64,000 nt of DNA from positions 211,420,001-211,484,000 of the forward strand of contig OZ024743.1 in the NCBI GenBank assembly GCA_964016885.1, given 5' to 3'. The notes under the pieces are model-generated. The model made no database searches and had not been told where the DNA came from. It saw only the letters and a program-made list of their open reading frames with translations. Both the position numbers and the translations under genes were made by a program. The stretch comes from Eledone cirrhosa. Its lineage: Eukaryota. Shown here one piece after another: positions 1 through 64,000 of this stretch. Position 1 is the first letter of the stretch. Every line of letters begins with the position of its first letter.

Positions 1-2873
1 TCTGAGGAAAGAATCACTAGAGAGCTGTTCCAGCTAGAGCCACTAATTCACTGAATTGAGAGATCACAGCGCTGATATTACAGACCTGTGGTTAGAATGT
101 CTGAGGAAAGAATCACTAGAGAGCTGTTCCAGGTAGAGCCGTTAATTCACTGAATTGAGAGATCATAGCTCTGATACTACAGACATGTGGTTAGAATGTC
201 TGAGGAAAGAATCACTAGAGAGCTGTTCCAGGTATGAGCCACTAATTCACTGAATTGAGAGATCACAGCTCTGATACTACAGACATGGGGTTAGAATTCC
301 TGAGGAAAGAATAACTAGAGAGCTGTTCCAGGTAGAGCCACTAATTCACCAAATTGAGAGATCATAGCTCTGATACTACAGACATGTGGTTAGAATGTCT
401 GAGGAACGAATCACTAGAGAGCTGTTCCAGGTAGTGCCACTAATTCACTGAATTGAGAGATCATAGCTCTGATACTACAGACATGTGGTTAGAATGTCTG
501 AGGAAAGAATCACTAGAGAGCTGTTCCAGGTAGAGCCACTAATTCACTGAATTGAGAGATCACAGCTCTGATACTACAGACATGTGGTTAGAATGTCTGA
601 GGAAAGAATCACTAGAGAGCTGTTCCAGGTAGAGCCACTAATTCACTGAATTGAGAGATCATAGCTCTGATACTACAGATATGTGGTTAGAATGTCTGAG
701 GAAAGAATCACTAGAGAGCTGTTCCAGGTAGAGCCACTAATTCACTGAATTGAGAGATCACAGCTCTGATATTACAGGCATGTGGCTAGAATGTCTGAGG
801 AAAGAATCACTGGAGAGCTGTTCCAGGTAGAGCCACTAATTCACTGAATTGAGAGATAATAGCTCTGATATTACAGACATGTGGTTAGAATGTCTGAGGA
901 AAGAATCACTAGAGAGCTGTTCCAGGTAGAGCCACTAATTCACTGAATTTAGAGATCACAGCTCTGATATTACAGACATGTTGTTAGAATGTCTCAGGAA
1001 AGAATCACTAGAGAGCTGTTCCAGGTAGAGCCACTAATTCACTGAATTGAGAGATCACAGCTCTGATACTACAGACATGTGGTTAGAATGTCTGAGGAAA
1101 GAATCGCTGGGGAGCTGTTCCAGGTAGAGCCACTAATTCACTGAATTGAGAGATCACAGCTCTGATATTACAGACATGTGGTTAGAATGTCTGATGAAAG
1201 AAACACTAGAGAGCTGTTCCAGGTAGAGCCACTAATTCACTGAATTGAGAGATAATAGCTCTGATATTACAGACATGTGGTTAGAATGTCTCAGGAAAGA
1301 ATCACTAGAGAGCTGTTTCATGTAGAGCCACTAATTCACTGAATTGAGAGATCACAGCTCTGATACTACAGACATGTGGTTAGAATGTCTGAGGAAAGAA
1401 TCACTAGAGAGCTGTTCCAGGTAGAGCCACTAATTCACTGAATTGAGAGATCATAGCTCTGATATTACAGACATGTGGTTAGAATGTCTGAGGAAAGAAT
1501 CACTAGAGAGCTGTTCCAGCTAGAGCCACTAATTCACTGAATTGAGAGATCACAGCTCTGATATTACAGACCTGTGGTTAGAATGTCTGAGGAAAGAATC
1601 ACTAGAGAGCTGTTCCAGGTAGAGCCGTTAATTCACTGAATTGAGAGATCATAGCTCTGATACTACAGACATGTGGTTAGAATGTCTGAGGAAAGAATCA
1701 CTAGAGAGCTGTTCCAGGTATGAGCCACTAATTCACTGAATTGAGAGATCACAGCTCTGATACTACAGACATGGGGTTAGAATTCCTGAGGAAAGAATAA
1801 CTAGAGAGCTGTTCCAGGTAGAGCCACTAATTCACTGAATTGAGATATCACAGCTCTGATACTACAGACATGTGGTTAGAATGTCTGAGGAAAGAATCAC
1901 TAGAGAGCTGTTCCAGGTAGAGCCACTAATTCACTGAATTGAGAGATCATAGCTCTGATACTACAGATATGTGGTTAGAATGTCTGAGGAAAGAATCACT
2001 AGAGAGCTGTTCCAGGTAGAGCCACTAATTCACTGAATTGAGAGAGCACAGCTCTGATATTACAGGCATGTGGCTAGAATGTCTGAGGAAAGAATCACTG
2101 GAGAGCTGTTCCAGGTAGAGCCACTAATTCACTGAATTGAGAGATCACAGCTCTGATATTACAGACATGGGGTTAGAATGTCTGAGGAAAGAATCACTAG
2201 AGAGCTGTTCCAGGTAGAGCCACTAATTCACTGAATTGAGAGATCATAGCTCTGATACTACAGACATGTGGTTAGAATGTCTGAGGAAAGAATCACTAGA
2301 GAGCTGTTCCAGGTAGAGCCACTAATTCACTGAATTAAGAGATCATAGCTCTGATATTACAGACATGTGGTTAGAATGTCTGAGGAAAGAATCACTGGAG
2401 AGCTGTTCCAGGTAGAGCCACTAATTCACCAAATTGAGAGATCATAGCTCTGATACTACAGACATGTGGTTAGAATGTCTGAGGAACGAATCACTAGAGA
2501 GCTGTTCCAGGTAGTGCCACTAATTCACTGAAGTGAGAGATCATCGCTCTGATACTACAGACATGTGGTTAGAATGTCTGAGGAAAAAATCACTAGAGAG
2601 CTGTTCCAGGTAGAGCCACTAATTCACTGAATTGAGAGATCACAGCTCTGATACTACAGACATGTGGTTAGAATGTCTGAGGAAAGAATCACTAGAGAGT
2701 TGTTCCAGGTAGAGCCACTAATTCACTGAATTGAGAGATCATAGCTCTGATACTACAGATATGTGGTTAGAATGTCTGAGGAAAGAATCACTAGAGAGCT
2801 GTTCCAGGTAGAGCCACTAATTCACTGAATTTAGAGATCACAGCTCTGATATTACAGGCATGTGGCTAGAATG
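1..2873. repeat. HOR variant, 29 monomers
   Basis: Marker CAGCGCTGAT has its CG at 70 and 2943 (2873 = 29x99+2). Relative to the 36-mer it has one extra monomer (ATCGCTGGGG, 1091), lacks two (fusion monomer 1785-1883) and lacks six more (fusion monomer at 2874). Confidence 0.9.
530..628 (+). mobile_element. Representative monomer read as a decayed 33-codon fragment of an RTE-clade non-LTR retrotransposon ORF (region C-terminal to the RT domain); applies to every monomer
   Basis: Direct translation of 530-628 gives VEPLIH*IERSQL*YYRHVVRMSEERITRELFQ. It matches without gaps the recalled RTE/Expander-type motif VEPLLLHIERSQLRWLGHLFRMPPGRLPGEVFQ (VEPL, IERSQL, HxxRM, RxxxExFQ). The match is from memory, not from a search. 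Confidence 0.8.
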
Positions 2874-10600: not shown

Positions 10601-10701
10601 TGTCTGAGGAAAGAATCACTAGAGAGCTGTTCCAGGTAGAGCCACTAATTCACTGAATTGAGAGATCATAGCTCTGATATTACAGACATGTGGTTAGAAT
10701 G
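7630..10701. repeat. HOR variant, 31 monomers (5-monomer deletion)
   Basis: Markers at 7699 and 10771 (3072 = 31x99+3). Monomer 9414-9512 has GAACGA of HOR monomer 19 but lacks its GTAGTG, and is followed directly by the TTAAGA monomer 25. Confidence 0.9.
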
Positions 10702-13700
10702 TCTGAGGAAAGAATCACTAGAGAGCTGTTCCAGCTAGAGCCACTAATTCACTGAATTGAGAGATCACAGCGCTGATATTACAGACCTGTGGTTAGAATG
10801 TCTGAGGAAAGAATCACTAGAGAGCTGTTCCAGGTAGAGCCGTTAATTCACTGAATTGAGAGATCATAGCTCTGATACTACAGACATGTGGTTAGAATGT
10901 CTGAGGAAAGAATCACTAGAGAGCTGTTCCAGGTATGAGCCACTAATTCACTGAATTGAGAGATCACAGCTCTGATACTACAGACATGGGGTTAGAATTC
11001 CTGAGGAAAGAATAACTAGAGAGCTGTTCCAGGTAGAGCCACTAATTCACCAAATTGAGAGATCATAGCTCTGATACTACAGACATGTGGTTAGAATGTT
11101 TGAGGAACGAATCACTAGAGAGCTGTTCCAGGTAGTGCCACTAATTCACTGAATTGAGAGATCATAGCTCTGATACTACAGACATGTGGTTAGAATGTCT
11201 GAGGAAAGAATCACTAGAGAGCTGTTCCAGGTAGAGCCACTAATTCACTGAATTGAGAGATCACAGCTCTGATACTACAGACATGTGGTTAGAATGTCTG
11301 AGGAAAGAATCACTAGAGAGCTGTTCCAGGTAGAGCCACTAATTCACTGAATTGAGAGATCATAGCTCTGATACTACAGATATGTGGTTAGAATGTCTGA
11401 GGAAAGAATCACTAGAGAGCTGTTCCAGGTAGAGCCACTAATTCACTGAATTGAGAGATCACAGCTCTGATATTACAGGCATGTGGCTAGAATGTCTGAG
11501 GAAAGAATCACTGGAGAGCTGTTCCAGGTAGAGCCACTAATTCACTGAATTGAGAGATAATAGCTCTGATATTACAGACATGTGGTTAGAATGTCTGAGG
11601 AAAGAATCACTAGAGAGCTGTTCCAGGTAGAGCCACTAATTCACTGAATTTAGAGATCACAGCTCTGATATTACAGACATGTTGTTAGAATGTCTCAGGA
11701 AAGAATCACTAGAGAGCTGTTCCAGGTAGAGCCACTAATTCACTGAATTGAGAGATCACAGCTCTGATATTACAGACATGTGGTTAGAATGTCTGATGAA
11801 AGAAACACTAGAGAGCTGTTCCAGGTAGAGCCACTAATTCACTGAATTGAGAGATAATAGCTCTGATATTACAGACATGTGGTTAGAATGTCTCAGGAAA
11901 GAATCACTAGAGAGCTGTTTCATGTAGAGCCACTAATTCACTGAATTGAGAGATCACAGCTCTGATACTACAGACATGTGGTTAGAATGTCTGAGGAAAG
12001 AATCACTAGAGAGCTGTTCCAGGTAGAGCCACTAATTCACTGAATTGAGAGATCATAGCTCTGATATTACAGACATGTGGTTAGAATGTCTGAGGAAAGA
12101 ATCACTAGAGAGCTGTTCCAGCTAGAGCCACTAATTCACTGAATTGAGAGATCACAGCTCTGATATTACAGACCTGTGGTTAGAATGTCTGAGGAAAGAA
12201 TCACTAGAGAGCTGTTCCAGGTAGAGCCGTTAATTCACTGAATTGAGAGATCATAGCTCTGATACTACAGACATGTGGTTAGAATGTCTGAGGAAAGAAT
12301 CACTAGAGAGCTGTTCCAGGTATGAGCCACTAATTCACTGAATTGAGAGATCACAGCTCTGATACTACAGACATGGGGTTAGAATTCCTGAGGAAAGAAT
12401 AACTAGAGAGCTGTTCCAGGTAGAGCCACTAATTCACCAAATTGAGAGATCATAGCTCTGATACTACAGACATGTGGTTAGAATGTCTGAGGAACGAATC
12501 ACTAGAGAGCTGTTCCAGGTAGTGCCACTAATTCACTGAATTGAGAGATCATAGCTCTGATACTACAGACATGTGGTTAGAATGTCTGAGGAAAGAATCA
12601 CTAGAGAGCTGTTCCAGGTAGAGCCACTAATTCACTGAATTGAGATATCACAGCTCTGATACTACAGACATGTGGTTAGAATGTCTGAGGAAAGAATCAC
12701 TAGAGAGCTGTTCCAGGTAGAGCCACTAATTCACTGAATTGAGAGATCATAGCTCTGATACTACAGATATGTGGTTAGAATGTCTGAGGAAAGAATCACT
12801 AGAGAGCTGTTCCAGGTAGAGCCACTAATTCACTGAATTGAGAGAGCACAGCTCTGATATTACAGGCATGTGGCTAGAATGTCTGAGGAAAGAATCACTG
12901 GAGAGCTGTTCCAGGTAGAGCCACTAATTCACTGAATTGAGAGATCACAGCTCTGATATTACAGACATGGGGTTAGAATGTCTGAGGAAAGAATCACTAG
13001 AGAGCTGTTCCAGGTAGAGCCACTAATTCACTGAATTGAGAGATCATAGCTCTGATACTACAGACATGTGGTTAGAATGTCTGAGGAAAGAATCACTAGA
13101 GAGCTGTTCCAGGTAGAGCCACTAATTCACTGAATTAAGAGATCATAGCTCTGATATTACAGACATGTGGTTAGAATGTCTGAGGAAAGAATCACTGGAG
13201 AGCTGTTCCAGGTAGAGCCACTAATTCACCAAATTGAGAGATCATAGCTCTGATACTACAGACATGTGGTTAGAATGTCTGAGGAACGAATCACTAGAGA
13301 GCTGTTCCAGGTAGTGCCACTAATTCACTGAAGTGAGAGATCATCGCTCTGATACTACAGACATGTGGTTAGAATGTCTGAGGAAAAAATCACTAGAGAG
13401 CTGTTCCAGGTAGAGCCACTAATTCACTGAATTGAGAGATCACAGCTCTGATACTACAGACATGTGGTTAGAATGTCTGAGGAAAGAATCACTAGAGAGT
13501 TGTTCCAGGTAGAGCCACTAATTCACTGAATTGAGAGATCATAGCTCTGATACTACAGATATGTGGTTAGAATGTCTGAGGAAAGAATCACTAGAGAGCT
13601 GTTCCAGGTAGAGCCACTAATTCACTGAATTTAGAGATCACAGCTCTGATATTACAGGCATGTGGCTAGAATGTCTGAGGAAAGAATCACTGGAGAGCTG

Positions 13701-16700
13701 TTCCAGGTAGAGCCACTAATTCACTGAATTGAGAGATCACAGCTCTGATATTACAGACATGTGGTTAGAATGTCTGAGGAAAGAATCACTAGAGAGCTGT
13801 TCCAGGTAGAGCCACTAATTCACTGAATTGAGAGATCATAGCTCTGATACTACAGACATGTGGTTAGAATGTCTGAGGAAAGAATCACTAGAGAGCTGTT
13901 CCAGGTAGAGCCACTAATTCACTGAATTAAGAGATCATAGCTCTGATATTACAGACATGTGGTTAGAATGTCTGAGGAAAGAATCACTGGAGAGCTGTTC
14001 CAGGTAGAGCCACCTAATTCACTGAATTGAGAGATCACAGCTCTGATATTACAGACATGTGGTTAGAATGTCTCAGGAAAGAATCACTAGAGAGCTGTTT
14101 CATGTAGAGCCACTAATTCACTGAATTGAGAGATCACAGCTCTGATACTACAGACATGTGGTTAGAATGTCTGAGGAAAGAGTCACTAGAGAGCTGTTCC
14201 AGGTAGAGCCACTAATTCACTGAATTGAGAGATCATAGCTCTGATATTACAGACATGTGGTTAGAATGTCTGAGGAAAGAATCACTAGAGAGCTGTTCCA
14301 GCTAGAGCCACTAATTCACTGAATTGAGAGATCACAGCGCTGATATTACAGACCTGTGGTTAGAATGTCTGAGGAAAGAATCACTAGAGAGCTGTTCCAG
14401 GTAGAGCCGTTAATTCACTGAATTGAGAGATCATAGCTCTGATACTACAGACATGTGGTTAGAATGTCTGAGGAAAGAATCACTAGAGAGCTGTTCCAGG
14501 TATGAGCCACTAATTCACTGAATTGAGAGATCACAGCTCTGATACTACAGACATGGGGTTAGAATTCCTGAGGAAAGAATAACTAGAGAGCTGTTCCAGG
14601 TAGAGCCACTAATTCACCAAATTGAGAGATCATAGCTCTGATACTACAGACATGTGGTTAGAATGTCTGAGGAACGAATCACTAGAGAGCTGTTCCAGGT
14701 AGTGCCACTAATTCACTGAATTGAGAGATCATAGCTCTGATACTACAGACATGTGGTTAGAATGTCTGAGGAAAGAATCACTAGAGAGCTGTTCCAGGTA
14801 GAGCCACTAATTCACTGAATTGAGAGATCACAGCTCTGATACTACAGACATGTGGTTAGAATGTCTGAGGAAAGAATCACTAGAGAGCTGTTCCAGGTAG
14901 AGCCACTAATTCACTGAATTGAGAGATCATAGCTCTGATACTACAGATATGTGGTTAGAATGTCTGAGGAAAGAATCACTAGAGAGCTGTTCCAGGTAGA
15001 GCCACTAATTCACTGAATTGAGAGATCACAGCTCTGATATTACAGGCATGTGGCTAGAATGTCTGAGGAAAGAATCACTGGAGAGCTGTTCCAGGTAGAG
15101 CCACTAATTCACTGAATTGAGAGATAATAGCTCTGATATTACAGACATGTGGTTAGAATGTCTGAGGAAAGAATCACTAGAGAGCTGTTCCAGGTAGAGC
15201 CACTAATTCACTGAATTTAGAGATCACAGCTCTGATATTACAGACATGTTGTTAGAATGTCTCAGGAAAGAATCACTAGAGAGCTGTTCCAGGTAGAGCC
15301 ACTAATTCACTGAATTGAGAGATCACAGCTCTGATATTACAGACATGTGGTTAGAATGTCTGATGAAAGAAACACTAGAGAGCTGTTCCAGGTAGAGCCA
15401 CTAATTCACTGAATTGAGAGATAATAGCTCTGATATTACAGACATGTGGTTAGAATGTCTCAGGAAAGAATCACTAGAGAGCTGTTTCATGTAGAGCCAC
15501 TAATTCACTGAATTGAGAGATCACAGCTCTGATACTACAGACATGTGGTTAGAATGTCTGAGGAAAGAATCACTAGAGAGCTGTTCCAGGTAGAGCCACT
15601 AATTCACTGAATTGAGAGATCATAGCTCTGATATTACAGACATGTGGTTAGAATGTCTGAGGAAAGAATCACTAGAGAGCTGTTCCAGCTAGAGCCACTA
15701 ATTCACTGAATTGAGAGATCACAGCTCTGATATTACAGACCTGTGGTTAGAATGTCTGAGGAAAGAATCACTAGAGAGCTGTTCCAGGTAGAGCCGTTAA
15801 TTCACTGAATTGAGAGATCATAGCTCTGATACTACAGACATGTGGTTAGAATGTCTGAGGAAAGAATCACTAGAGAGCTGTTCCAGGTATGAGCCACTAA
15901 TTCACTGAATTGAGAGATCACAGCTCTGATACTACAGACATGGGGTTAGAATTCCTGAGGAAAGAATAACTAGAGAGCTGTTCCAGGTAGAGCCACTAAT
16001 TCACCAAATTGAGAGATCATAGCTCTGATACTACAGACATGTGGTTAGAATGTCTGAGGAACGAATCACTAGAGAGCTGTTCCAGGTAGTGCCACTAATT
16101 CACTGAATTGAGAGATCATAGCTCTGATACTACAGACATGTGGTTAGAATGTCTGAGGAAAGAATCACTAGAGAGCTGTTCCAGGTAGAGCCACTAATTC
16201 ACTGAATTGAGATATCACAGCTCTGATACTACAGACATGTGGTTAGAATGTCTGAGGAAAGAATCACTAGAGAGCTGTTCCAGGTAGAGCCACTAATTCA
16301 CTGAATTGAGAGATCATAGCTCTGATACTACAGATATGTGGTTAGAATGTCTGAGGAAAGAATCACTAGAGAGCTGTTCCAGGTAGAGCCACTAATTCAC
16401 TGAATTGAGAGAGCACAGCTCTGATATTACAGGCATGTGGCTAGAATGTCTGAGGAAAGAATCACTGGAGAGCTGTTCCAGGTAGAGCCACTAATTCACT
16501 GAATTGAGAGATCACAGCTCTGATATTACAGACATGGGGTTAGAATGTCTGAGGAAAGAATCACTAGAGAGCTGTTCCAGGTAGAGCCACTAATTCACTG
16601 AATTGAGAGATCATAGCTCTGATACTACAGACATGTGGTTAGAATGTCTGAGGAAAGAATCACTAGAGAGCTGTTCCAGGTAGAGCCACTAATTCACTGA

Positions 16701-19700
16701 ATTAAGAGATCATAGCTCTGATATTACAGACATGTGGTTAGAATGTCTGAGGAAAGAATCACTGGAGAGCTGTTCCAGGTAGAGCCACTAATTCACCAAA
16801 TTGAGAGATCATAGCTCTGATACTACAGACATGTGGTTAGAATGTCTGAGGAACGAATCACTAGAGAGCTGTTCCAGGTAGTGCCACTAATTCACTGAAG
16901 TGAGAGATCATCGCTCTGATACTACAGACATGTGGTTAGAATGTCTGAGGAAAAAATCACTAGAGAGCTGTTCCAGGTAGAGCCACTAATTCACTGAATT
17001 GAGAGATCACAGCTCTGATACTACAGACATGTGGTTAGAATGTCTGAGGAAAGAATCACTAGAGAGTTGTTCCAGGTAGAGCCACTAATTCACTGAATTG
17101 AGAGATCATAGCTCTGATACTACAGATATGTGGTTAGAATGTCTGAGGAAAGAATCACTAGAGAGCTGTTCCAGGTAGAGCCACTAATTCACTGAATTTA
17201 GAGATCACAGCTCTGATATTACAGGCATGTGGCTAGAATGTCTGAGGAAAGAATCACTGGAGAGCTGTTCCAGGTAGAGCCACTAATTCACTGAATTGAG
17301 AGATCACAGCTCTGATATTACAGACATGTGGTTAGAATGTCTGAGGAAAGAATCACTAGAGAGCTGTTCCAGGTAGAGCCACTAATTCACTGAATTGAGA
17401 GATCATAGCTCTGATACTACAGACATGTGGTTAGAATGTCTGAGGAAAGAATCACTAGAGAGCTGTTCCAGGTAGAGCCACTAATTCACTGAATTAAGAG
17501 ATCATAGCTCTGATATTACAGACATGTGGTTAGAATGTCTGAGGAAAGAATCACTGGAGAGCTGTTCCAGGTAGAGCCACCTAATTCACTGAATTGAGAG
17601 ATCACAGCTCTGATATTACAGACATGTGGTTAGAATGTCTCAGGAAAGAATCACTAGAGAGCTGTTTCATGTAGAGCCACTAATTCACTGAATTGAGAGA
17701 TCACAGCTCTGATACTACAGACATGTGGTTAGAATGTCTGAGGAAAGAGTCACTAGAGAGCTGTTCCAGGTAGAGCCACTAATTCACTGAATTGAGAGAT
17801 CATAGCTCTGATATTACAGACATGTGGTTAGAATGTCTGAGGAAAGAATCACTAGAGAGCTGTTCCAGCTAGAGCCACTAATTCACTGAATTGAGAGATC
17901 ACAGCGCTGATATTACAGACCTGTGGTTAGAATGTCTGAGGAAAGAATCACTAGAGAGCTGTTCCAGGTAGAGCCGTTAATTCACTGAATTGAGAGATCA
18001 TAGCTCTGATACTACAGACATGTGGTTAGAATGTCTGAGGAAAGAATCACTAGAGAGCTGTTCCAGGTATGAGCCACTAATTCACTGAATTGAGAGATCA
18101 CAGCTCTGATACTACAGACATGGGGTTAGAATTCCTGAGGAAAGAATAACTAGAGAGCTGTTCCAGGTAGAGCCACTAATTCACCAAATTGAGAGATCAT
18201 AGCTCTGATACTACAGACATGTGGTTAGAATGTCTGAGGAACGAATCACTAGAGAGCTGTTCCAGGTAGTGCCACTAATTCACTGAATTGAGAGATCATA
18301 GCTCTGATACTACAGACATGTGGTTAGAATGTCTGAGGAAAGAATCACTAGAGAGCTGTTCCAGGTAGAGCCACTAATTCACTGAATTGAGAGATCACAG
18401 CTCTGATACTACAGACATGTGGTTAGAATGTCTGAGGAAAGAATCACTAGAGAGCTGTTCCAGGTAGAGCCACTAATTCACTGAATTGAGAGATCATAGC
18501 TCTGATACTACAGATATGTGGTTAGAATGTCTGAGGAAAGAATCACTAGAGAGCTGTTCCAGGTAGAGCCACTAATTCACTGAATTGAGAGATCACAGCT
18601 CTGATATTACAGGCATGTGGCTAGAATGTCTGAGGAAAGAATCACTGGAGAGCTGTTCCAGGTAGAGCCACTAATTCACTGAATTGAGAGATAATAGCTC
18701 TGATATTACAGACATGTGGTTAGAATGTCTGAGGAAAGAATCACTAGAGAGCTGTTCCAGGTAGAGCCACTAATTCACTGAATTTAGAGATCACAGCTCT
18801 GATATTACAGACATGTTGTTAGAATGTCTCAGGAAAGAATCACTAGAGAGCTGTTCCAGGTAGAGCCACTAATTCACTGAATTGAGAGATCACAGCTCTG
18901 ATATTACAGACATGTGGTTAGAATGTCTGATGAAAGAAACACTAGAGAGCTGTTCCAGGTAGAGCCACTAATTCACTGAATTGAGAGATAATAGCTCTGA
19001 TATTACAGACATGTGGTTAGAATGTCTCAGGAAAGAATCACTAGAGAGCTGTTTCATGTAGAGCCACTAATTCACTGAATTGAGAGATCACAGCTCTGAT
19101 ACTACAGACATGTGGTTAGAATGTCTGAGGAAAGAATCACTAGAGAGCTGTTCCAGGTAGAGCCACTAATTCACTGAATTGAGAGATCATAGCTCTGATA
19201 TTACAGACATGTGGTTAGAATGTCTGAGGAAAGAATCACTAGAGAGCTGTTCCAGCTAGAGCCACTAATTCACTGAATTGAGAGATCACAGCTCTGATAT
19301 TACAGACCTGTGGTTAGAATGTCTGAGGAAAGAATCACTAGAGAGCTGTTCCAGGTAGAGCCGTTAATTCACTGAATTGAGAGATCATAGCTCTGATACT
19401 ACAGACATGTGGTTAGAATGTCTGAGGAAAGAATCACTAGAGAGCTGTTCCAGGTATGAGCCACTAATTCACTGAATTGAGAGATCACAGCTCTGATACT
19501 ACAGACATGGGGTTAGAATTCCTGAGGAAAGAATAACTAGAGAGCTGTTCCAGGTAGAGCCACTAATTCACCAAATTGAGAGATCATAGCTCTGATACTA
19601 CAGACATGTGGTTAGAATGTCTGAGGAACGAATCACTAGAGAGCTGTTCCAGGTAGTGCCACTAATTCACTGAATTGAGAGATCATAGCTCTGATACTAC

Positions 19701-22700
19701 AGACATGTGGTTAGAATGTCTGAGGAAAGAATCACTAGAGAGCTGTTCCAGGTAGAGCCACTAATTCACTGAATTGAGATATCACAGCTCTGATACTACA
19801 GACATGTGGTTAGAATGTCTGAGGAAAGAATCACTAGAGAGCTGTTCCAGGTAGAGCCACTAATTCACTGAATTGAGAGATCATAGCTCTGATACTACAG
19901 ATATGTGGTTAGAATGTCTGAGGAAAGAATCACTAGAGAGCTGTTCCAGGTAGAGCCACTAATTCACTGAATTGAGAGAGCACAGCTCTGATATTACAGG
20001 CATGTGGCTAGAATGTCTGAGGAAAGAATCACTGGAGAGCTGTTCCAGGTAGAGCCACTAATTCACTGAATTGAGAGATCACAGCTCTGATATTACAGAC
20101 ATGGGGTTAGAATGTCTGAGGAAAGAATCACTAGAGAGCTGTTCCAGGTAGAGCCACTAATTCACTGAATTGAGAGATCATAGCTCTGATACTACAGACA
20201 TGTGGTTAGAATGTCTGAGGAAAGAATCACTAGAGAGCTGTTCCAGGTAGAGCCACTAATTCACTGAATTAAGAGATCATAGCTCTGATATTACAGACAT
20301 GTGGTTAGAATGTCTGAGGAAAGAATCACTGGAGAGCTGTTCCAGGTAGAGCCACTAATTCACCAAATTGAGAGATCATAGCTCTGATACTACAGACATG
20401 TGGTTAGAATGTCTGAGGAACGAATCACTAGAGAGCTGTTCCAGGTAGTGCCACTAATTCACTGAAGTGAGAGATCATCGCTCTGATACTACAGACATGT
20501 GGTTAGAATGTCTGAGGAAAAAATCACTAGAGAGCTGTTCCAGGTAGAGCCACTAATTCACTGAATTGAGAGATCACAGCTCTGATACTACAGACATGTG
20601 GTTAGAATGTCTGAGGAAAGAATCACTAGAGAGTTGTTCCAGGTAGAGCCACTAATTCACTGAATTGAGAGATCATAGCTCTGATACTACAGATATGTGG
20701 TTAGAATGTCTGAGGAAAGAATCACTAGAGAGCTGTTCCAGGTAGAGCCACTAATTCACTGAATTTAGAGATCACAGCTCTGATATTACAGGCATGTGGC
20801 TAGAATGTCTGAGGAAAGAATCACTGGAGAGCTGTTCCAGGTAGAGCCACTAATTCACTGAATTGAGAGATCACAGCTCTGATATTACAGACATGTGGTT
20901 AGAATGTCTGAGGAAAGAATCACTAGAGAGCTGTTCCAGGTAGAGCCACTAATTCACTGAATTGAGAGATCATAGCTCTGATACTACAGACATGTGGTTA
21001 GAATGTCTGAGGAAAGAATCACTAGAGAGCTGTTCCAGGTAGAGCCACTAATTCACTGAATTAAGAGATCATAGCTCTGATATTACAGACATGTGGTTAG
21101 AATGTCTGAGGAAAGAATCACTGGAGAGCTGTTCCAGGTAGAGCCACCTAATTCACTGAATTGAGAGATCACAGCTCTGATATTACAGACATGTGGTTAG
21201 AATGTCTCAGGAAAGAATCACTAGAGAGCTGTTTCATGTAGAGCCACTAATTCACTGAATTGAGAGATCACAGCTCTGATACTACAGACATGTGGTTAGA
21301 ATGTCTGAGGAAAGAATCACTAGAGAGCTGTTCCAGGTAGAGCCACTAATTCACTGAATTGAGAGATCATAGCTCTGATATTACAGACATGTGGTTAGAA
21401 TGTCTGAGGAAAGAATCACTAGAGAGCTGTTCCAGCTAGAGCCACTAATTCACTGAATTGAGAGATCACAGCGCTGATATTACAGACCTGTGGTTAGAAT
21501 GTCTGAGGAAAGAATCACTAGAGAGCTGTTCCAGGTAGAGCCGTTAATTCACTGAATTGAGAGATCATAGCTCTGATACTACAGACATGTGGTTAGAATG
21601 TCTGAGGAAAGAATCACTAGAGAGCTGTTCCAGGTATGAGCCACTAATTCACTGAATTGAGAGATCACAGCTCTGATACTACAGACATGGGGTTAGAATT
21701 CCTGAGGAAAGAATAACTAGAGAGCTGTTCCAGGTAGAGCCACTAATTCACCAAATTGAGAGATCATAGCTCTGATACTACAGACATGTGGTTAGAATGT
21801 CTGAGGAACGAATCACTAGAGAGCTGTTCCAGGTAGTGCCACTAATTCACTGAATTGAGAGATCATAGCTCTGATACTACAGACATGTGGTTAGAATGTC
21901 TGAGGAAAGAATCACTAGAGAGCTGTTCCAGGTAGAGCCACTAATTCACTGAATTGAGAGATCACAGCTCTGATACTACAGACATGTGGTTAGAATGTCT
22001 GAGGAAAGAATCACTAGAGAGCTGTTCCAGGTAGAGCCACTAATTCACTGAATTGAGAGATCATAGCTCTGATACTACAGATATGTGGTTAGAATGTCTG
22101 AGGAAAGAATCACTAGAGAGCTGTTCCAGGTAGAGCCACTAATTCACTGAATTGAGAGATCACAGCTCTGATATTACAGGCATGTGGCTAGAATGTCTGA
22201 GGAAAGAATCACTGGAGAGCTGTTCCAGGTAGAGCCACTAATTCACTGAATTGAGAGATAATAGCTCTGATATTACAGACATGTGGTTAGAATGTCTGAG
22301 GAAAGAATCACTAGAGAGCTGTTCCAGGTAGAGCCACTAATTCACTGAATTTAGAGATCACAGCTCTGATATTACAGACATGTTGTTAGAATGTCTCAGG
22401 AAAGAATCACTAGAGAGCTGTTCCAGGTAGAGCCACTAATTCACTGAATTGAGAGATCACAGCTCTGATATTACAGACATGTGGTTAGAATGTCTGATGA
22501 AAGAAACACTAGAGAGCTGTTCCAGGTAGAGCCACTAATTCACTGAATTGAGAGATAATAGCTCTGATATTACAGACATGTGGTTAGAATGTCTCAGGAA
22601 AGAATCACTAGAGAGCTGTTTCATGTAGAGCCACTAATTCACTGAATTGAGAGATCACAGCTCTGATACTACAGACATGTGGTTAGAATGTCTGAGGAAA

Positions 22701-25700
22701 GAATCACTAGAGAGCTGTTCCAGGTAGAGCCACTAATTCACTGAATTGAGAGATCATAGCTCTGATATTACAGACATGTGGTTAGAATGTCTGAGGAAAG
22801 AATCACTAGAGAGCTGTTCCAGCTAGAGCCACTAATTCACTGAATTGAGAGATCACAGCTCTGATATTACAGACCTGTGGTTAGAATGTCTGAGGAAAGA
22901 ATCACTAGAGAGCTGTTCCAGGTAGAGCCGTTAATTCACTGAATTGAGAGATCATAGCTCTGATACTACAGACATGTGGTTAGAATGTCTGAGGAAAGAA
23001 TCACTAGAGAGCTGTTCCAGGTATGAGCCACTAATTCACTGAATTGAGAGATCACAGCTCTGATACTACAGACATGGGGTTAGAATTCCTGAGGAAAGAA
23101 TAACTAGAGAGCTGTTCCAGGTAGAGCCACTAATTCACCAAATTGAGAGATCATAGCTCTGATACTACAGACATGTGGTTAGAATGTCTGAGGAACGAAT
23201 CACTAGAGAGCTGTTCCAGGTAGTGCCACTAATTCACTGAATTGAGAGATCATAGCTCTGATACTACAGACATGTGGTTAGAATGTCTGAGGAAAGAATC
23301 ACTAGAGAGCTGTTCCAGGTAGAGCCACTAATTCACTGAATTGAGATATCACAGCTCTGATACTACAGACATGTGGTTAGAATGTCTGAGGAAAGAATCA
23401 CTAGAGAGCTGTTCCAGGTAGAGCCACTAATTCACTGAATTGAGAGATCATAGCTCTGATACTACAGATATGTGGTTAGAATGTCTGAGGAAAGAATCAC
23501 TAGAGAGCTGTTCCAGGTAGAGCCACTAATTCACTGAATTGAGAGAGCACAGCTCTGATATTACAGGCATGTGGCTAGAATGTCTGAGGAAAGAATCACT
23601 GGAGAGCTGTTCCAGGTAGAGCCACTAATTCACTGAATTGAGAGATCACAGCTCTGATATTACAGACATGGGGTTAGAATGTCTGAGGAAAGAATCACTA
23701 GAGAGCTGTTCCAGGTAGAGCCACTAATTCACTGAATTGAGAGATCATAGCTCTGATACTACAGACATGTGGTTAGAATGTCTGAGGAAAGAATCACTAG
23801 AGAGCTGTTCCAGGTAGAGCCACTAATTCACTGAATTAAGAGATCATAGCTCTGATATTACAGACATGTGGTTAGAATGTCTGAGGAAAGAATCACTGGA
23901 GAGCTGTTCCAGGTAGAGCCACTAATTCACCAAATTGAGAGATCATAGCTCTGATACTACAGACATGTGGTTAGAATGTCTGAGGAACGAATCACTAGAG
24001 AGCTGTTCCAGGTAGTGCCACTAATTCACTGAAGTGAGAGATCATCGCTCTGATACTACAGACATGTGGTTAGAATGTCTGAGGAAAAAATCACTAGAGA
24101 GCTGTTCCAGGTAGAGCCACTAATTCACTGAATTGAGAGATCACAGCTCTGATACTACAGACATGTGGTTAGAATGTCTGAGGAAAGAATCACTAGAGAG
24201 TTGTTCCAGGTAGAGCCACTAATTCACTGAATTGAGAGATCATAGCTCTGATACTACAGATATGTGGTTAGAATGTCTGAGGAAAGAATCACTAGAGAGC
24301 TGTTCCAGGTAGAGCCACTAATTCACTGAATTTAGAGATCACAGCTCTGATATTACAGGCATGTGGCTAGAATGTCTGAGGAAAGAATCACTGGAGAGCT
24401 GTTCCAGGTAGAGCCACTAATTCACTGAATTGAGAGATCACAGCTCTGATATTACAGACATGTGGTTAGAATGTCTGAGGAAAGAATCACTAGAGAGCTG
24501 TTCCAGGTAGAGCCACTAATTCACTGAATTGAGAGATCATAGCTCTGATACTACAGACATGTGGTTAGAATGTCTGAGGAAAGAATCACTAGAGAGCTGT
24601 TCCAGGTAGAGCCACTAATTCACTGAATTAAGAGATCATAGCTCTGATATTACAGACATGTGGTTAGAATGTCTGAGGAAAGAATCACTGGAGAGCTGTT
24701 CCAGGTAGAGCCACCTAATTCACTGAATTGAGAGATCACAGCTCTGATATTACAGACATGTGGTTAGAATGTCTCAGGAAAGAATCACTAGAGAGCTGTT
24801 TCATGTAGAGCCACTAATTCACTGAATTGAGAGATCACAGCTCTGATACTACAGACATGTGGTTAGAATGTCTGAGGAAAGAATCACTAGAGAGCTGTTC
24901 CAGGTAGAGCCACTAATTCACTGAATTGAGAGATCATAGCTCTGATATTACAGACATGTGGTTAGAATGTCTGAGGAAAGAATCACTAGAGAGCTGTTCC
25001 AGCTAGAGCCACTAATTCACTGAATTGAGAGATCACAGCGCTGATATTACAGACCTGTGGTTAGAATGTCTGAGGAAAGAATCACTAGAGAGCTGTTCCA
25101 GGTAGAGCCGTTAATTCACTGAATTGAGAGATCATAGCTCTGATACTACAGACATGTGGTTAGAATGTCTGAGGAAAGAATCACTAGAGAGCTGTTCCAG
25201 GTATGAGCCACTAATTCACTGAATTGAGAGATCACAGCTCTGATACTACAGACATGGGGTTAGAATTCCTGAGGAAAGAATAACTAGAGAGCTGTTCCAG
25301 GTAGAGCCACTAATTCACCAAATTGAGAGATCATAGCTCTGATACTACAGACATGTGGTTAGAATGTCTGAGGAACGAATCACTAGAGAGCTGTTCCAGG
25401 TAGTGCCACTAATTCACTGAATTGAGAGATCATAGCTCTGATACTACAGACATGTGGTTAGAATGTCTGAGGAAAGAATCACTAGAGAGCTGTTCCAGGT
25501 AGAGCCACTAATTCACTGAATTGAGAGATCACAGCTCTGATACTACAGACATGTGGTTAGAATGTCTGAGGAAAGAATCACTAGAGAGCTGTTCCAGGTA
25601 GAGCCACTAATTCACTGAATTGAGAGATCATAGCTCTGATACTACAGATATGTGGTTAGAATGTCTGAGGAAAGAATCACTAGAGAGCTGTTCCAGGTAG

Positions 25701-28536
25701 AGCCACTAATTCACTGAATTGAGAGATCACAGCTCTGATATTACAGGCATGTGGCTAGAATGTCTGAGGAAAGAATCACTGGAGAGCTGTTCCAGGTAGA
25801 GCCACTAATTCACTGAATTGAGAGATAATAGCTCTGATATTACAGACATGTGGTTAGAATGTCTGAGGAAAGAATCACTAGAGAGCTGTTCCAGGTAGAG
25901 CCACTAATTCACTGAATTTAGAGATCACAGCTCTGATATTACAGACATGTTGTTAGAATGTCTCAGGAAAGAATCACTAGAGAGCTGTTCCAGGTAGAGC
26001 CACTAATTCACTGAATTGAGAGATCACAGCTCTGATATTACAGACATGTGGTTAGAATGTCTGATGAAAGAAACACTAGAGAGCTGTTCCAGGTAGAGCC
26101 ACTAATTCACTGAATTGAGAGATAATAGCTCTGATATTACAGACATGTGGTTAGAATGTCTCAGGAAAGAATCACTAGAGAGCTGTTTCATGTAGAGCCA
26201 CTAATTCACTGAATTGAGAGATCACAGCTCTGATACTACAGACATGTGGTTAGAATGTCTGAGGAAAGAATCACTAGAGAGCTGTTCCAGGTAGAGCCAC
26301 TAATTCACTGAATTGAGAGATCATAGCTCTGATATTACAGACATGTGGTTAGAATGTCTGAGGAAAGAATCACTAGAGAGCTGTTCCAGCTAGAGCCACT
26401 AATTCACTGAATTGAGAGATCACAGCTCTGATATTACAGACCTGTGGTTAGAATGTCTGAGGAAAGAATCACTAGAGAGCTGTTCCAGGTAGAGCCGTTA
26501 ATTCACTGAATTGAGAGATCATAGCTCTGATACTACAGACATGTGGTTAGAATGTCTGAGGAAAGAATCACTAGAGAGCTGTTCCAGGTATGAGCCACTA
26601 ATTCACTGAATTGAGAGATCACAGCTCTGATACTACAGACATGGGGTTAGAATTCCTGAGGAAAGAATAACTAGAGAGCTGTTCCAGGTAGAGCCACTAA
26701 TTCACCAAATTGAGAGATCATAGCTCTGATACTACAGACATGTGGTTAGAATGTCTGAGGAACGAATCACTAGAGAGCTGTTCCAGGTAGTGCCACTAAT
26801 TCACTGAATTGAGAGATCATAGCTCTGATACTACAGACATGTGGTTAGAATGTCTGAGGAAAGAATCACTAGAGAGCTGTTCCAGGTAGAGCCACTAATT
26901 CACTGAATTGAGATATCACAGCTCTGATACTACAGACATGTGGTTAGAATGTCTGAGGAAAGAATCACTAGAGAGCTGTTCCAGGTAGAGCCACTAATTC
27001 ACTGAATTGAGAGATCATAGCTCTGATACTACAGATATGTGGTTAGAATGTCTGAGGAAAGAATCACTAGAGAGCTGTTCCAGGTAGAGCCACTAATTCA
27101 CTGAATTGAGAGAGCACAGCTCTGATATTACAGGCATGTGGCTAGAATGTCTGAGGAAAGAATCACTGGAGAGCTGTTCCAGGTAGAGCCACTAATTCAC
27201 TGAATTGAGAGATCACAGCTCTGATATTACAGACATGGGGTTAGAATGTCTGAGGAAAGAATCACTAGAGAGCTGTTCCAGGTAGAGCCACTAATTCACT
27301 GAATTGAGAGATCATAGCTCTGATACTACAGACATGTGGTTAGAATGTCTGAGGAAAGAATCACTAGAGAGCTGTTCCAGGTAGAGCCACTAATTCACTG
27401 AATTAAGAGATCATAGCTCTGATATTACAGACATGTGGTTAGAATGTCTGAGGAAAGAATCACTGGAGAGCTGTTCCAGGTAGAGCCACTAATTCACCAA
27501 ATTGAGAGATCATAGCTCTGATACTACAGACATGTGGTTAGAATGTCTGAGGAACGAATCACTAGAGAGCTGTTCCAGGTAGTGCCACTAATTCACTGAA
27601 GTGAGAGATCATCGCTCTGATACTACAGACATGTGGTTAGAATGTCTGAGGAAAAAATCACTAGAGAGCTGTTCCAGGTAGAGCCACTAATTCACTGAAT
27701 TGAGAGATCACAGCTCTGATACTACAGACATGTGGTTAGAATGTCTGAGGAAAGAATCACTAGAGAGTTGTTCCAGGTAGAGCCACTAATTCACTGAATT
27801 GAGAGATCATAGCTCTGATACTACAGATATGTGGTTAGAATGTCTGAGGAAAGAATCACTAGAGAGCTGTTCCAGGTAGAGCCACTAATTCACTGAATTT
27901 AGAGATCACAGCTCTGATATTACAGGCATGTGGCTAGAATGTCTGAGGAAAGAATCACTGGAGAGCTGTTCCAGGTAGAGCCACTAATTCACTGAATTGA
28001 GAGATCACAGCTCTGATATTACAGACATGTGGTTAGAATGTCTGAGGAAAGAATCACTAGAGAGCTGTTCCAGGTAGAGCCACTAATTCACTGAATTGAG
28101 AGATCATAGCTCTGATACTACAGACATGTGGTTAGAATGTCTGAGGAAAGAATCACTAGAGAGCTGTTCCAGGTAGAGCCACTAATTCACTGAATTAAGA
28201 GATCATAGCTCTGATATTACAGACATGTGGTTAGAATGTCTGAGGAAAGAATCACTGGAGAGCTGTTCCAGGTAGAGCCACCTAATTCACTGAATTGAGA
28301 GATCACAGCTCTGATATTACAGACATGTGGTTAGAATGTCTCAGGAAAGAATCACTAGAGAGCTGTTTCATGTAGAGCCACTAATTCACTGAATTGAGAG
28401 ATCACAGCTCTGATACTACAGACATGTGGTTAGAATGTCTGAGGAAAGAATCACTAGAGAGCTGTTCCAGGTAGAGCCACTAATTCACTGAATTGAGAGA
28501 TCATAGCTCTGATATTACAGACATGTGGTTAGAATG
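10702..28536. repeat. Five tandem canonical 36-monomer HOR units of 3567 bp (starts 10702, 14269, 17836, 21403, 24970)
   Basis: Marker CG at 10771, 14338, 17905, 21472, 25039 and 28606, a constant spacing of 3567 = 36x99+3. The order of diagnostic variants is the same in each unit, and very few private substitutions were seen (11100; 14182 and 17749). Confidence 0.96.
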
Positions 28537-31500
28537 TCTGAGGAAAGAATCACTAGAGAGCTGTTCCAGCTAGAGCCACTAATTCACTGAATTGAGAGAT
28601 CACAGCGCTGATATTACAGACCTGTGGTTAGAATGTCTGAGGAAAGAATCACTAGAGAGCTGTTCCAGGTAGAGCCGTTAATTCACTGAATTGAGAGATC
28701 ATAGCTCTGATACTACAGACATGTGGTTAGAATGTCTGAGGAAAGAATCACTAGAGAGCTGTTCCAGGTATGAGCCACTAATTCACTGAATTGAGAGATC
28801 ACAGCTCTGATACTACAGACATGGGGTTAGAATTCCTGAGGAAAGAATAACTAGAGAGCTGTTCCAGGTAGAGCCACTAATTCACCAAATTGAGAGATCA
28901 TAGCTCTGATACTACAGACATGTGGTTAGAATGTCTGAGGAACGAATCACTAGAGAGCTGTTCCAGGTAGTGCCACTAATTCACTGAATTGAGAGATCAT
29001 AGCTCTGATACTACAGACATGTGGTTAGAATGTCTGAGGAAAGAATCACTAGAGAGCTGTTCCAGGTAGAGCCACTAATTCACTGAATTGAGAGATCACA
29101 GCTCTGATACTACAGACATGTGGTTAGAATGTCTGAGGAAAGAATCACTAGAGAGCTGTTCCAGGTAGAGCCACTAATTCACTGAATTGAGAGATCATAG
29201 CTCTGATACTACAGATATGTGGTTAGAATGTCTGAGGAAAGAATCACTAGAGAGCTGTTCCAGGTAGAGCCACTAATTCACTGAATTGAGAGATCACAGC
29301 TCTGATATTACAGGCATGTGGCTAGAATGTCTGAGGAAAGAATCACTGGAGAGCTGTTCCAGGTAGAGCCACTAATTCACTGAATTGAGAGATAATAGCT
29401 CTGATATTACAGACATGTGGTTAGAATGTCTGAGGAAAGAATCACTAGAGAGCTGTTCCAGGTAGAGCCACTAATTCACTGAATTTAGAGATCACAGCTC
29501 TGATATTACAGACATGTTGTTAGAATGTCTCAGGAAAGAATCACTAGAGAGCTGTTCCAGGTAGAGCCACTAATTCACTGAATTGAGAGATCACAGCTCT
29601 GATATTACAGACATGTGGTTAGAATGTCTGATGAAAGAAACACTAGAGAGCTGTTCCAGGTAGAGCCACTAATTCACTGAATTGAGAGATAATAGCTCTG
29701 ATATTACAGACATGTGGTTAGAATGTCTCAGGAAAGAATCACTAGAGAGCTGTTTCATGTAGAGCCACTAATTCACTGAATTGAGAGATCACAGCTCTGA
29801 TACTACAGACATGTGGTTAGAATGTCTGAGGAAAGAATCACTAGAGAGCTGTTCCAGGTAGAGCCACTAATTCACTGAATTGAGAGATCATAGCTCTGAT
29901 ATTACAGAAATGTGGTTAGAATGTCTGAGGAAAGAATCACTAGAGAGCTGTTCCAGCTAGAGCCACTAATTCACTGAATTGAGAGATCACAGCTCTGATA
30001 TTACAGACCTGTGGTTAGAATGTCTGAGGAAAGAATCACTAGAGAGCTGTTCCAGGTAGAGCCGTTAATTCACTGAATTGAGAGATCATAGCTCTGATAC
30101 TACAGACATGTGGTTAGAATGTCTGAGGAAAGAATCACTAGAGAGCTGTTCCAGGTATGAGCCACTAATTCACTGAATTGAGAGATCACAGCTCTGATAC
30201 TACAGACATGGGGTTAGAATTCCTGAGGAAAGAATAACTAGAGAGCTGTTCCAGGTAGAGCCACTAATTCACCAAATTGAGAGATCATAGCTCTGATACT
30301 ACAGACATGTGGTTAGAATGTCTGAGGAACGAATCACTAGAGAGCTGTTCCAGGTAGTGCCACTAATTCACTGAATTGAGAGATCATAGCTCTGATACTA
30401 CAGACATGTGGTTAGAATGTCTGAGGAAAGAATCACTAGAGAGCTGTTCCAGGTAGAGCCACTAATTCACTGAATTGAGATATCACAGCTCTGATACTAC
30501 AGACATGTGGTTAGAATGTCTGAGGAAAGAATCACTAGAGAGCTGTTCCAGGTAGAGCCACTAATTCACTGAATTGAGAGATCATAGCTCTGATACTACA
30601 GATATGTGGTTAGAATGTCTGAGGAAAGAATCACTAGAGAGCTGTTCCAGGTAGAGCCACTAATTCACTGAATTGAGAGAGCACAGCTCTGATATTACAG
30701 GCATGTGGCTAGAATGTCTGAGGAAAGAATCACTGGAGAGCTGTTCCAGGTAGAGCCACTAATTCACTGAATTGAGAGATCACAGCTCTGATATTACAGA
30801 CATGGGGTTAGAATGTCTGAGGAAAGAATCACTAGAGAGCTGTTCCAGGTAGAGCCACTAATTCACTGAATTGAGAGATCATAGCTCTGATACTACAGAC
30901 ATGTGGTTAGAATGTCTGAGGAAAGAATCACTAGAGAGCTGTTCCAGGTAGAGCCACTAATTCACTGAATTAAGAGATCATAGCTCTGATATTACAGACA
31001 TGTGGTTAGAATGTCTGAGGAAAGAATCACTGGAGAGCTGTTCCAGGTAGAGCCACTAATTCACCAAATTGAGAGATCATAGCTCTGATACTACAGACAT
31101 GTGGTTAGAATGTCTGAGGAACGAATCACTAGAGAGCTGTTCCAGGTAGTGCCACTAATTCACTGAAGTGAGAGATCATCGCTCTGATACTACAGACATG
31201 TGGTTAGAATGTCTGAGGAAAAAATCACTAGAGAGCTGTTCCAGGTAGAGCCACTAATTCACTGAATTGAGAGATCACAGCTCTGATACTACAGACATGT
31301 GGTTAGAATGTCTGAGGAAAGAATCACTAGAGAGTTGTTCCAGGTAGAGCCACTAATTCACTGAATTGAGAGATCATAGCTCTGATACTACAGATATGTG
31401 GTTAGAATGTCTGAGGAAAGAATCACTAGAGAGCTGTTCCAGGTAGAGCCACTAATTCACTGAATTTAGAGATCACAGCTCTGATATTACAGGCATGTGG

Positions 31501-61700: not shown

Positions 61701-64000
61701 TGGTTAGAACGTCTGAGGAAAGAATCACTAGAGAGCTGTTCCAGGTAGAGCCACTAATTCACTGAATTGAGAGATCACAGCTCTGATATTACAGACATGT
61801 GGTTAGAATGTCTGAGTAAAGAATCAATGGAGTGCTGTTCCAGGTAGAGCCACTAATTCACTGAATTGAGAGATCACAGCTCTGATATTACAGACATGTG
61901 GTCAGAATGTCTGAGCAAAGAATCACTAGAGAGCTGTTCCAGGTAGTGCCGCTAATTCACTGAATTGAGAGATCATAGCTCTGATACTACAGACATGTGG
62001 TTAGAATGTCTGAGGAAAGAATAACTATAGAGCTGTTCCAGGTAGAGCCACTAATTCACTGAATTGAGAGATCACAGCTCTGATACTACAGACATGTGGT
62101 TAGAATTTCTGAGGAAAGAATAACTAGAGAGCTGTTCCATGTAGAGCCACTAATTCACCAAATTGAGAGATCATAGCTCTGATACTACAGACATGTGCTT
62201 AGAATGTCTGAGGAAAGAATCACTAGAGAGCTGTTCCAGGTAGAGCTACTAATTCACTGAATTGAGAGATCATAGCTCTGATATTACAGACATGTGGTTA
62301 GAATGTCTGAGGAAAGAATCACTAGAGAGCTGTTCCAGGTAGAGCCACTAATTCACTGAATTGAGAGATCACAGCTCTGATACTACAGACATGTGGTTAG
62401 AATTTCTGAGGAAAGAATAACTAGAGAGCTGTTCCATGTAGAGCCACTAATTCGCCAAATTGAGAGATCATAGCTCTGATACTACAGATATGTGCTTAGA
62501 ATGTCTGAGGAAAGAATCACTAGAGAGCTGTTCCAGGTAGAGCTACTAATTCACTGAATTGAGAGATCATAGCTCTGATATTACAGACATGTGGTTAGAA
62601 TGTCTGAGGAAAGAATCACTGGAGAGCTGTTCCAGGTAGAGCCACTAATTCACTGAATTGAGAGATCACAGCTCTGATATTACAGACATGAGGTTAGAAT
62701 GTCTGAGGAAAGAATCACTGGAGAGCTGTTCCAGGTAGAGCCACTAATTCACTGAATTGAGAGATCACAGCTCTGATATTACAGACATGTGGTTAGAATG
62801 TCTCAGGAAAGAATCACTGGAGAGCTGTTCCAGGTAGAGCCACTAATTCACTGAATTGAGAGATCACAGCTCTGATATTACAGACATGTGGTTAGAATGT
62901 CTGAGGAAAGAATCACTAGAGAGCTGTTCCAGGTAGTGCCACTAATTCACTGAATTGAGAGATAATAGCTCTGATATTACAGACATGTGGTTAGAATGTC
63001 TGAGGAAAGAATCACTAGAGAGCTGTTCCAGGTAGAGCCACTAATTCACTGAATTGAGAGATCACAGCTCTGATATTACAGACATGTGGTTAGAATGTCT
63101 CAGGAAAGAATCACTAGAGAGCTGTTCCAGGTAGAGCCACTAATTCACCGAATTGAGAGATCACAGCTCTGATATTACAGACATGTGGTTAGTATGTCTG
63201 AGTAAAGAATCACTGGAGAGCTGTTCCAGGTAGAGCCACTAATTCACTGAATTGAGAGATCACAGCTCTGATATTACAGGCATGTGGTTAGAATGTCTGA
63301 GGAAAGAATCACTAGAGAGCTATTTCAGGTAGAGCCACTAATTCACTGAATTGAGAGATCACAGCTCTGATATTACAGACATGTGGTTAGAATGTCTGAG
63401 GAAAGAATCACTAGCGAGCTGTTCCAGATAGAGCCGCTAATTCATTGAATTGAGAGATCACAGCTCTGATACTACAGACATGTGGTTAGAATGTCTAAGG
63501 AAAAAATCACTAGAGAGCTGTTCCAGGTAGAGCCACTAATTCACTGAATTGAGAGATCACAGCTCTGATACTACAGACATGTGGTTAGAATGTCTGAGGA
63601 AAGAATAACTAGAGAGCTGTTCCATGTAGAGCCACTAATTCACCAAATTGAGAGATCATAGCTCTGATACTACAGACATGTGCTTAGAATGTCTGAGGAA
63701 AGAATCACTAGAGAGCTGTTCCAGGTAGAGCTACTAATTCACTGAATTGAGAGATCATAGCTCTGATATTACAGACATGTGGTTAGAATGTCTGAGGAAA
63801 GATTCACTAGAGAGCTGTTCCAGGTAGAGCCACTAGTTCACTGAATTGAGAGATCACAGCTCTGATACTACAGACATGTGGTTAGAATGTCTGAGGAAAG
63901 AATCACTAGAGAGCTGTTCCAGGTAGAGCCACTAATTCACTGAATTGAGAGATAATAGCTCTGATACTACAGACATGTGGTTAGAATGTCTGAGGAAAGA
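53420..64000. repeat. Block duplication with period 5643 bp (57 monomers): ~53420-58357 and ~59063-64000, running off the window
   Basis: TGTATGAGG at 55673/61316, TTCGCCAA at 56811/62454 and CACCGAATT at 57506/63149, all at an offset of 5643 = 57x99. Confidence 0.92.

Follow-up and report, generated by a model that had tools for sequence, protein, structure and literature searches.

The window analysed here is a stretch of 64,000 nucleotides from Eledone cirrhosa (assembly GCA_964016885.1, contig OZ024743.1, positions 211,420,001 to 211,484,000 of the forward strand), placed at G000:C4:211,420,001 in the coordinates used below. It is filled from end to end by a satellite whose 99-bp, 33-codon monomer derives from the coding region of a Rex3-like long interspersed nuclear element (LINE), and the confirmation of this origin is our central result. 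Tandem Repeats Finder (TRF) describes the window as a single tandem array (1-64000, period 99, 646.1 copies, 94% matches). Its 645 complete monomers, of 99 bp (560), 100 bp (60) or 98 bp (25), share a mean pairwise identity of 0.952. The features of the window are listed here.

1..64000, + strand: 99-bp satellite array of 646 monomers, part of an array of ~347 kb (TRF and monomer splitting)
518..616, + strand: one monomer in its likely true register (ELFQ VEPL...RITR), with 85/99 bases identical to LINE copy L089 and 61% identity to residues 777-817 of protein P0012
548..550, + strand: first stop, TGA in 585, CAA in 52 and CGA in 2 of 645 monomers
569..571, + strand: second stop, TGA in 641 and CGA in 3 of 645 monomers
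616..617, + strand: duplication junction from unit end to unit start, in the register of the LINE-embedded 99-bp arrays (junction comparison)
11924..29750, + strand, limits approximate: near-perfect higher-order repeat (HOR) of 36 monomers or 3,567 bp (lag identity)

An earlier note on this DNA had described the monomer and its + frame translation at 530-628, which we reproduced exactly, together with a count of at least 646 copies. Every one of the 620 gap-free monomers contains a stop (five have a single one), so the array is non-coding. The strings ACTGGAGAG, ATCGCTGGGGAG and GAGCCGCT occur exactly 93, 4 and 13 times in the window. The HORs of the earlier note are confirmed: over the whole window, monomers compared at a lag of 36 have an identity of 0.965, against at most 0.954 for the best lag in 50 shuffles of monomer order. 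It reaches 1.000 in blocks of 120 monomers starting at 11,924 and at 17,868, and lags of 26, 34, 31 or 42 monomers are preferred elsewhere.

The full array covers G000:C4:211,175,840-211,522,964, about 347 kb or ~3,500 units, of which ~197 kb was read directly. Long, head-to-tail, homogeneous and endowed with a higher-order period, it has the make-up of a satellite with HORs. A diagnostic 19-mer has 2,804 forward matches and 1 reverse match genome-wide, near the ~2,902 expected for one unbroken array, so that the window haplotype is essentially one array. On the left it starts mid-unit in AT-rich DNA, and on the right it adjoins a 29-bp satellite; the flanking LINE sequence that the earlier note had proposed to look for is absent from both ends. 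An isolated 3' fragment of the LINE, 4.6 kb upstream, was considered as the lost tail of the array and rejected, two such fragments being present in 55 kb of flank.

The source of the monomer is nevertheless found in the same genome. Its dispersed matches are short arrays within LINE fragments whose coding frame continues on one or both sides, and among 19 other loci chosen by the LINE 3' tail, 16 carry a single unit and 3 an array, which provides the non-tandem copies that the earlier note expected. The unit is a single-copy stretch of an abundant, old, 5'-truncated LINE: a native 24-mer of this family has 5,781 exact genome matches, and single copies are ~81% identical pairwise. Within this LINE the unit lies in frame between the reverse transcriptase (RT) domain and the GRPR tail, hence inside the open reading frame (ORF), as had been suggested. 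The relationship is measured at the DNA level by its alignment with the single-unit copy L089 given above, and at the protein level by that with P0012, which combines endonuclease and RT; the LINE peptide upstream of the unit, used as query, also led to proteins with both domains. When a monomer dimer was compared with 10 LINE proteins, it scored 80-110 with eight of them, against means of 27-33 for 300 dinucleotide shuffles (z 11.7-20.1), and the remaining two (z -0.1 and 2.2) hold little or no motif. The match to RTE-clade ORFs on which the initial proposal depended is thus significant. The genome search with Pfam RVT_1 was topped by a different, young LINE family at L011-L022, which we take to be CR1-like; it has many intact open frames of 945 aa, is unrelated to the satellite, and was discarded as a source after examination of 12 loci without a monomer match.

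The stops of the monomer correspond to arginine codons of the LINE. Among 29 single host copies, CGA stands at the first position in 16 and at the second in 14, so the earlier placing of the second stop on the conserved arginine of QLRW holds and extends to the first. Both CpG-decay products of this CGA, TGA and CAA, are present at the first stop in the array, which suggests that more than one unit existed while the site was still CG. Minor alleles are indeed nearer to the LINE, whose base is kept at 6 columns with frequencies of 6-49%; these ancestral alleles mostly lie in different monomers, and a single LINE-like monomer type within the array was rejected. The gapless alignment starting at VEPL that was first proposed was right about the colinear LINE origin, but its pairing of TRELFQ with PGEVFQ is likely fortuitous. 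As judged by comparison of related arrays, the register is most likely ELFQ-VEPL...RITR, shifted by four codons with ELFQ coming from 5' of VEPL, because sister arrays keep the upstream 12 bases of the LINE intact at the junction, where they read ESLQ. The window alone is ambiguous on this point, its 12 bases matching the LINE upstream at 8/12 and downstream at 7/12. An upstream origin takes three transitions from the CpG form of L049 and L087, and a downstream origin five changes, four of them transversions.

Placed by pairwise comparison and features rather than by an RT tree, the parent LINE would be filed as a Rex3/Expander-like element of the RTE clade. The RVT_1 domain is recognized 5' of the unit in the host copy L158 (34.9 bits for a cut-off of 29.6), while L157 and L159 fall under the cut-off, and host copies resemble residues 225-870 of P0012 at ~49-77% in most pieces. 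Endonuclease and RT share one ORF in the closest relatives P0012 and P0003; the host copies examined are all 5'-truncated and stop short of the endonuclease. RTE elements lack a C-terminal CCHC knuckle, and this pattern was found in 0 of 5 homologues. GAA-type tails directly follow the ORF end in host copies, and the host LINE has 47% protein identity with Xiphophorus (platyfish) RT proteins, compared with 21% for the CR1-like LINE of the same genome. The available part of PMC2887409 describes the ORF features of RTE elements and their very short 3' untranslated region (UTR), which ends in simple repeats, (GAA)n for instance. In the RTE/Rex3 protein file of its supplement, as far as accessible, EPLLL and ERSQLRW occur 3 times each, one of them in an entry labelled GaRex3-a01, in line with the initial statement that Rex3-type elements carry the motif. 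The parent thus resembles the Rex3/Expander subgroup of the RTE clade, as presented in the accessible parts of PMC2887409 and PMC3381678, by its RT, its post-RT motif and its short (GAA)n-type tail. It differs in that the host family is old and dead in every copy seen, at ~47% protein identity from its platyfish relatives. One protein clustering with the closest relatives P0001 and P0012, P0011, is labelled Herbaspirillum and is probably animal DNA in a metagenome bin.

The array on C4 is not a one-off. It is the extreme of a series of 1, 2, tens, hundreds to ~3,500 units, and its 99-bp junction is common to many dispersed loci, with 1,151 + 117 exact matches on both strands outside the window-type array. 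A second junction, which defines units of 123 bp, has 2,107 exact matches on both strands. Both primary junctions are in frame; some arrays have small deletions relative to these units and so show periods of 97, 89 or 121-122 bp. Microhomology of 2-3 bases exists at the 99-bp junction and none is evident at the 123-bp junction. Arrays with LINE sequence on both sides hold 2 to ~240 units, and the LINE ORF is in frame on both sides of those of 3 to ~240 units; seven arrays on C27 lie without LINE flank in unrelated DNA. One junction base is A in most junction matches, whereas a count by eye over the first 100 native matches gave A in only 36, which fits a single origin of the junction. This series of LINE copies with 1 to hundreds of units likely records how a LINE seeds satellites.

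Several members of the series deserve description. At C2:22,205,500-22,229,100 (L126-L144), ~240 units of 99 bp with a private haplotype and a within-array identity of 0.91 have LINE sequence on both sides. At C2:25.92-25.93 Mb (L146, L147), a LINE copy with both flanks contains more than 120 units of 97 bp, the first unit being of 99 bp with a haplotype unlike the interior. L110 (C23:24.02 Mb) and L111 (C23:23.86 Mb) are segmental duplicates by their near-identical tails and differ in array make-up; both mix 99- and 123-bp units, and one retains an old private first unit. Arrays of 75-, 84- and 96-bp period, all multiples of three, with the same junctions were seen at C15:6.93 Mb, C2:397.66 Mb, C1323 and C1709. 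On the reverse strand of L114 (~3870-5004), a second tandem amplification with a period of ~79 bp affects the tail region of the same LINE copy.

The non-amplified LINE sequence next to short arrays allows these junctions to be dated. In 14 two-unit copies (837 sites), 53 and 55 non-CpG changes are private to one unit and 11 are shared, that is, a private load of 6.3-6.6% per unit and a shared load of 1.3%, against 6.3% in single copies (n=29). Two-unit copies being internally as diverged as singles, the junctions are about as old as the LINE burst. Tails give pairwise values of 0.810 for 34 junction-bearing copies and 0.814 for 31 single copies, and among 384 tests no diagnostic tail site separating the two groups was found (best p 0.037). 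This count left out the segmental duplicates L046, L048, L059, L110 and L182, as well as copies whose units were partial or whose tails were short or rearranged.

Arrays on small chromosomes behave differently. In 22 arrays on C23-27 the units carry a load of 0.022, compared with 0.063 for single copies (p 2e-4), and 12 of the 22 have no fixed non-CpG difference; tail load, available for 11 of these arrays, is 0.092 against 0.087 in singles. On C1-8, the mean unit load of 16 arrays is 0.053, near that of singles (the window array, at 0.071, is included). Near-identical young units set in old unrelated tails would imply that the small-chromosome arrays exchanged sequence between loci, unless assembly polishing homogenized them. 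A young array-bearing master as the source of these arrays was rejected, the tails being old and unrelated. Position matters as well: 18 of 34 junction loci lie within 30 Mb of the ends of C1-4, against 8 of 107 native matches, a set made of the best 150 protein matches, which are long conserved copies. Junction loci on C1-4 are also clustered, with a median spacing of 1.05 Mb against 12.8 expected. They are clustered inside C4 (70-85 Mb, 207-237 Mb) and at the ends on C2 and C6; if C4 is a fusion, its internal clusters may be former chromosome ends.

A LINE source, fixed shared junctions, a series from 1 to ~3,500 units, old two-unit copies and local HORs are all present in this assembly. With good confidence, we read the satellite as a non-coding array in which 33 codons (99 bp) of an old Rex3-like LINE were amplified in tandem; the seeding duplication likely arose once around the LINE burst, likely spread among near-identical copies, and was likely expanded at the C4 locus by unequal exchange. 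The 99- and 123-bp in-frame internal duplications would have arisen early, probably once each. They would have reached many loci, mostly near chromosome ends and on small chromosomes, either when copies already duplicated were retrotransposed, or by ectopic gene conversion among young LINEs, or by both. Any copy with more than one unit could then grow by unequal crossover or slippage. Continuing exchange between loci would have homogenized the small-chromosome arrays, while the C4 array would have lost its LINE flanks, diverged privately and grown to 347 kb with HORs. Some observations weigh against this scheme. The founder copy of the C4 array cannot be shown because it has no LINE flank, and G-type junctions occur besides the A-type. 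Target-site duplications (TSDs) are convincing in 2 and at chance level in 23 of 25 junction-bearing copies. The small-chromosome arrays were for the most part chosen because they resemble the window, a bias towards shared CpG states, although such a selection is unlikely to yield so many arrays without private change. Assembly and polishing are a possible source of likeness among short arrays, and the native set may avoid chromosome ends.

As to how the duplications spread, the in-frame lengths and the 5' truncation of two-unit copies speak for duplicated masters, and the clustering, the weak TSD evidence and the lack of a protein with the motif duplicated speak for conversion. These data do not tell the two processes apart, and both may have acted. 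Were in-frame duplications carried by translatable, active LINEs and spread mainly by retrotransposition, the codon-multiple length of the monomer would be a fossil of ORF selection. The presence of both primary junctions in frame (1 in 9 by chance), the age of the two-unit copies, the many that begin within unit 1 and retain the 3' tail, the apparent TSDs of L109 and L112, and the exact recurrence of the 123-bp junction without evident microhomology all speak for such masters. Yet loci with a junction, including those that have just one, are concentrated near chromosome ends when native matches are not, the tails have no subfamily marker, the motif is duplicated in none of the 115 motif-bearing homologous proteins found among 154 proteins, and the young haplotype common to small chromosomes is left unexplained. 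This account is a tentative one. Equally speculative is its fullest form, that protein selection set the monomer length through two in-frame duplications in translatable Rex3-like masters, whose retrotransposition made genome-wide seeds and landing pads of the thousands of dead LINE fragments, one of them giving the 347-kb HOR satellite in a single lineage. Somewhat more plausible, if still short of an even chance, is a junction that arose once in genomic DNA and was copied into existing single-unit LINE fragments by ectopic recombination alone, in the way proposed for the entry of Rsp-like repeats into 1.688 clusters. It would account for near-identical units surrounded by old unrelated tails, for first units with a private haplotype unlike the interior (L001, L110, L146), for the clustering of junction loci and for the C27 arrays in unrelated DNA. 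It sits poorly with the two-unit copies, which hold no young donor-like segment; as both units carry the full old load, the invasion would need to date to the burst, and the in-frame lengths would be left to chance.

The junctions could also be recurrent, with RT or a replication fork repeatedly slipping back at the same two sites, as might be thought from the 99-bp junction shared by arrays of different private haplotypes (L149, C2:22.2 Mb, C2:25.9 Mb and the window) and from its microhomology. We find this improbable: microhomology is not evident at the 123-bp junction, one particular base state goes with the junction, and RNA structure around the unit is not above that of shuffles (z -0.65 and 0.14), a result on which an RNA hairpin defining the unit was also rejected. 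A chance resemblance to a LINE, or an array encoding a repeat protein, could appeal to a period that is a whole number of codons; it can hardly be entertained given the scores over shuffles, the DNA identity to L089 and the stops in every gap-free monomer.

Other sequencing data agree with a two-stage history. For the LINE part of the monomer, contig depths add up to ~2.2 million in organism A and ~2.4 million in organism B; for the window-type junction they add up to ~118,000 and ~2,200, respectively, ~50-fold less in B. Such depths should not be taken for copy numbers, and the assembly may itself come from run X1. Back-joints of 99 bp are seen in 8 contigs of organism A and in 12 of organism B, and the window letters are present in about half of the ~370 reads from a second study of organism A. 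An older junction with a lineage-specific big array fits these values. The sequencing-run search listed no RNA data set holding the satellite, and runs with a small share of it were set aside.

The C4 array sits in a block of unrelated satellites at ~208.4-212.3 Mb (L028-L039, L203-L209), with monomers of 55 bp (probes at 208.4-210.9 Mb), 45 bp (211.04 Mb) and 29 bp (211.52-211.61 Mb). A GC-richer 196/227-bp satellite with higher-order periods follows at 211.64-212.28 Mb, and an Rfam search on these neighbours gave 0 matches. This block could be a centromere or a fusion scar. The C4 satellite most likely behaves as an ordinary heterochromatic satellite.

Satellites derived from transposable elements are already known, some from LINE ORF2, according to the accessible text of the review PMC9659126. 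The same text lists the LINE-related chicken HinfI (CR1 partial ORF2 and 3' UTR), Phodopus PROsat and seal Pvc20 (both L1 ORF2), and the common cetacean satellite (L1 3' end). As here, their monomers are LINE-related; in the cases as summarized there, the LINE match makes up a part or a small region of the repeat, or takes in the 3' end, whereas the present monomer is over its full length a single colinear slice of the coding sequence of an RTE-clade element. The word RTE does not occur in that review. Closest in behaviour are the squamate satellites sSat1-3, derived from short interspersed nuclear elements (SINEs; PMC10702118, available in part): an internal part of a retroposon is tandemly repeated within dispersed copies, with a few fixed unit types and units more alike between loci than the parent copies. 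They also have a few to >1,200 units, a subtelomeric bias and alternating variants in long loci. The present unit is LINE coding sequence instead of a piece of a tRNA-headed SINE, its two primary lengths are in frame, one locus reaches ~3,500 units with 36-mer HORs in a multi-satellite block, and old flanking tails date the process. The satellite works like an sSat but is not one.

Two further systems may supply, by analogy, the two halves of the mechanism. The Ogre-derived satellites of Lathyrus sativus, in what could be consulted of PMC7004042, start as short retrotransposon-embedded arrays, some of which expanded to long arrays in one species, as here; Ogre is a long terminal repeat (LTR) element whose copies carry subrepeats, and here a non-LTR coding region is involved with most copies being single-unit. 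In the Drosophila simulans clade, Rsp-like repeats moved into 1.688 clusters with a rare junction common to loci, again as here, and the accessible part of 10.1101/846238 proposes spread through homology, interlocus conversion or extrachromosomal circular DNA. Their landing pads are another satellite, while here they would be old LINE fragments. A literature search, whose scope was outside subscription papers, Dfam and Repbase and in which most hits were judged by their listing, brought up no description of the C4 satellite or of a Rex3/RTE-derived satellite. Together, a source in a LINE ORF, two fixed in-frame junctions and a clock that is built in set this satellite apart as a variant among such systems.

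The birth of satellites and the likeness of distant arrays are usually debated with neither ancestor nor clock available. A single assembly provides them here: it contains the ancestor, the precise junctions and stages that range from 1 to ~3,500 units, and the non-amplified LINE flank of each short array is an internal clock, so that interlocus gene conversion and the role of chromosomal position become measurable locus by locus. With relevance to genome evolution, the pattern of the squamate SINE satellites is extended to LINE coding DNA.

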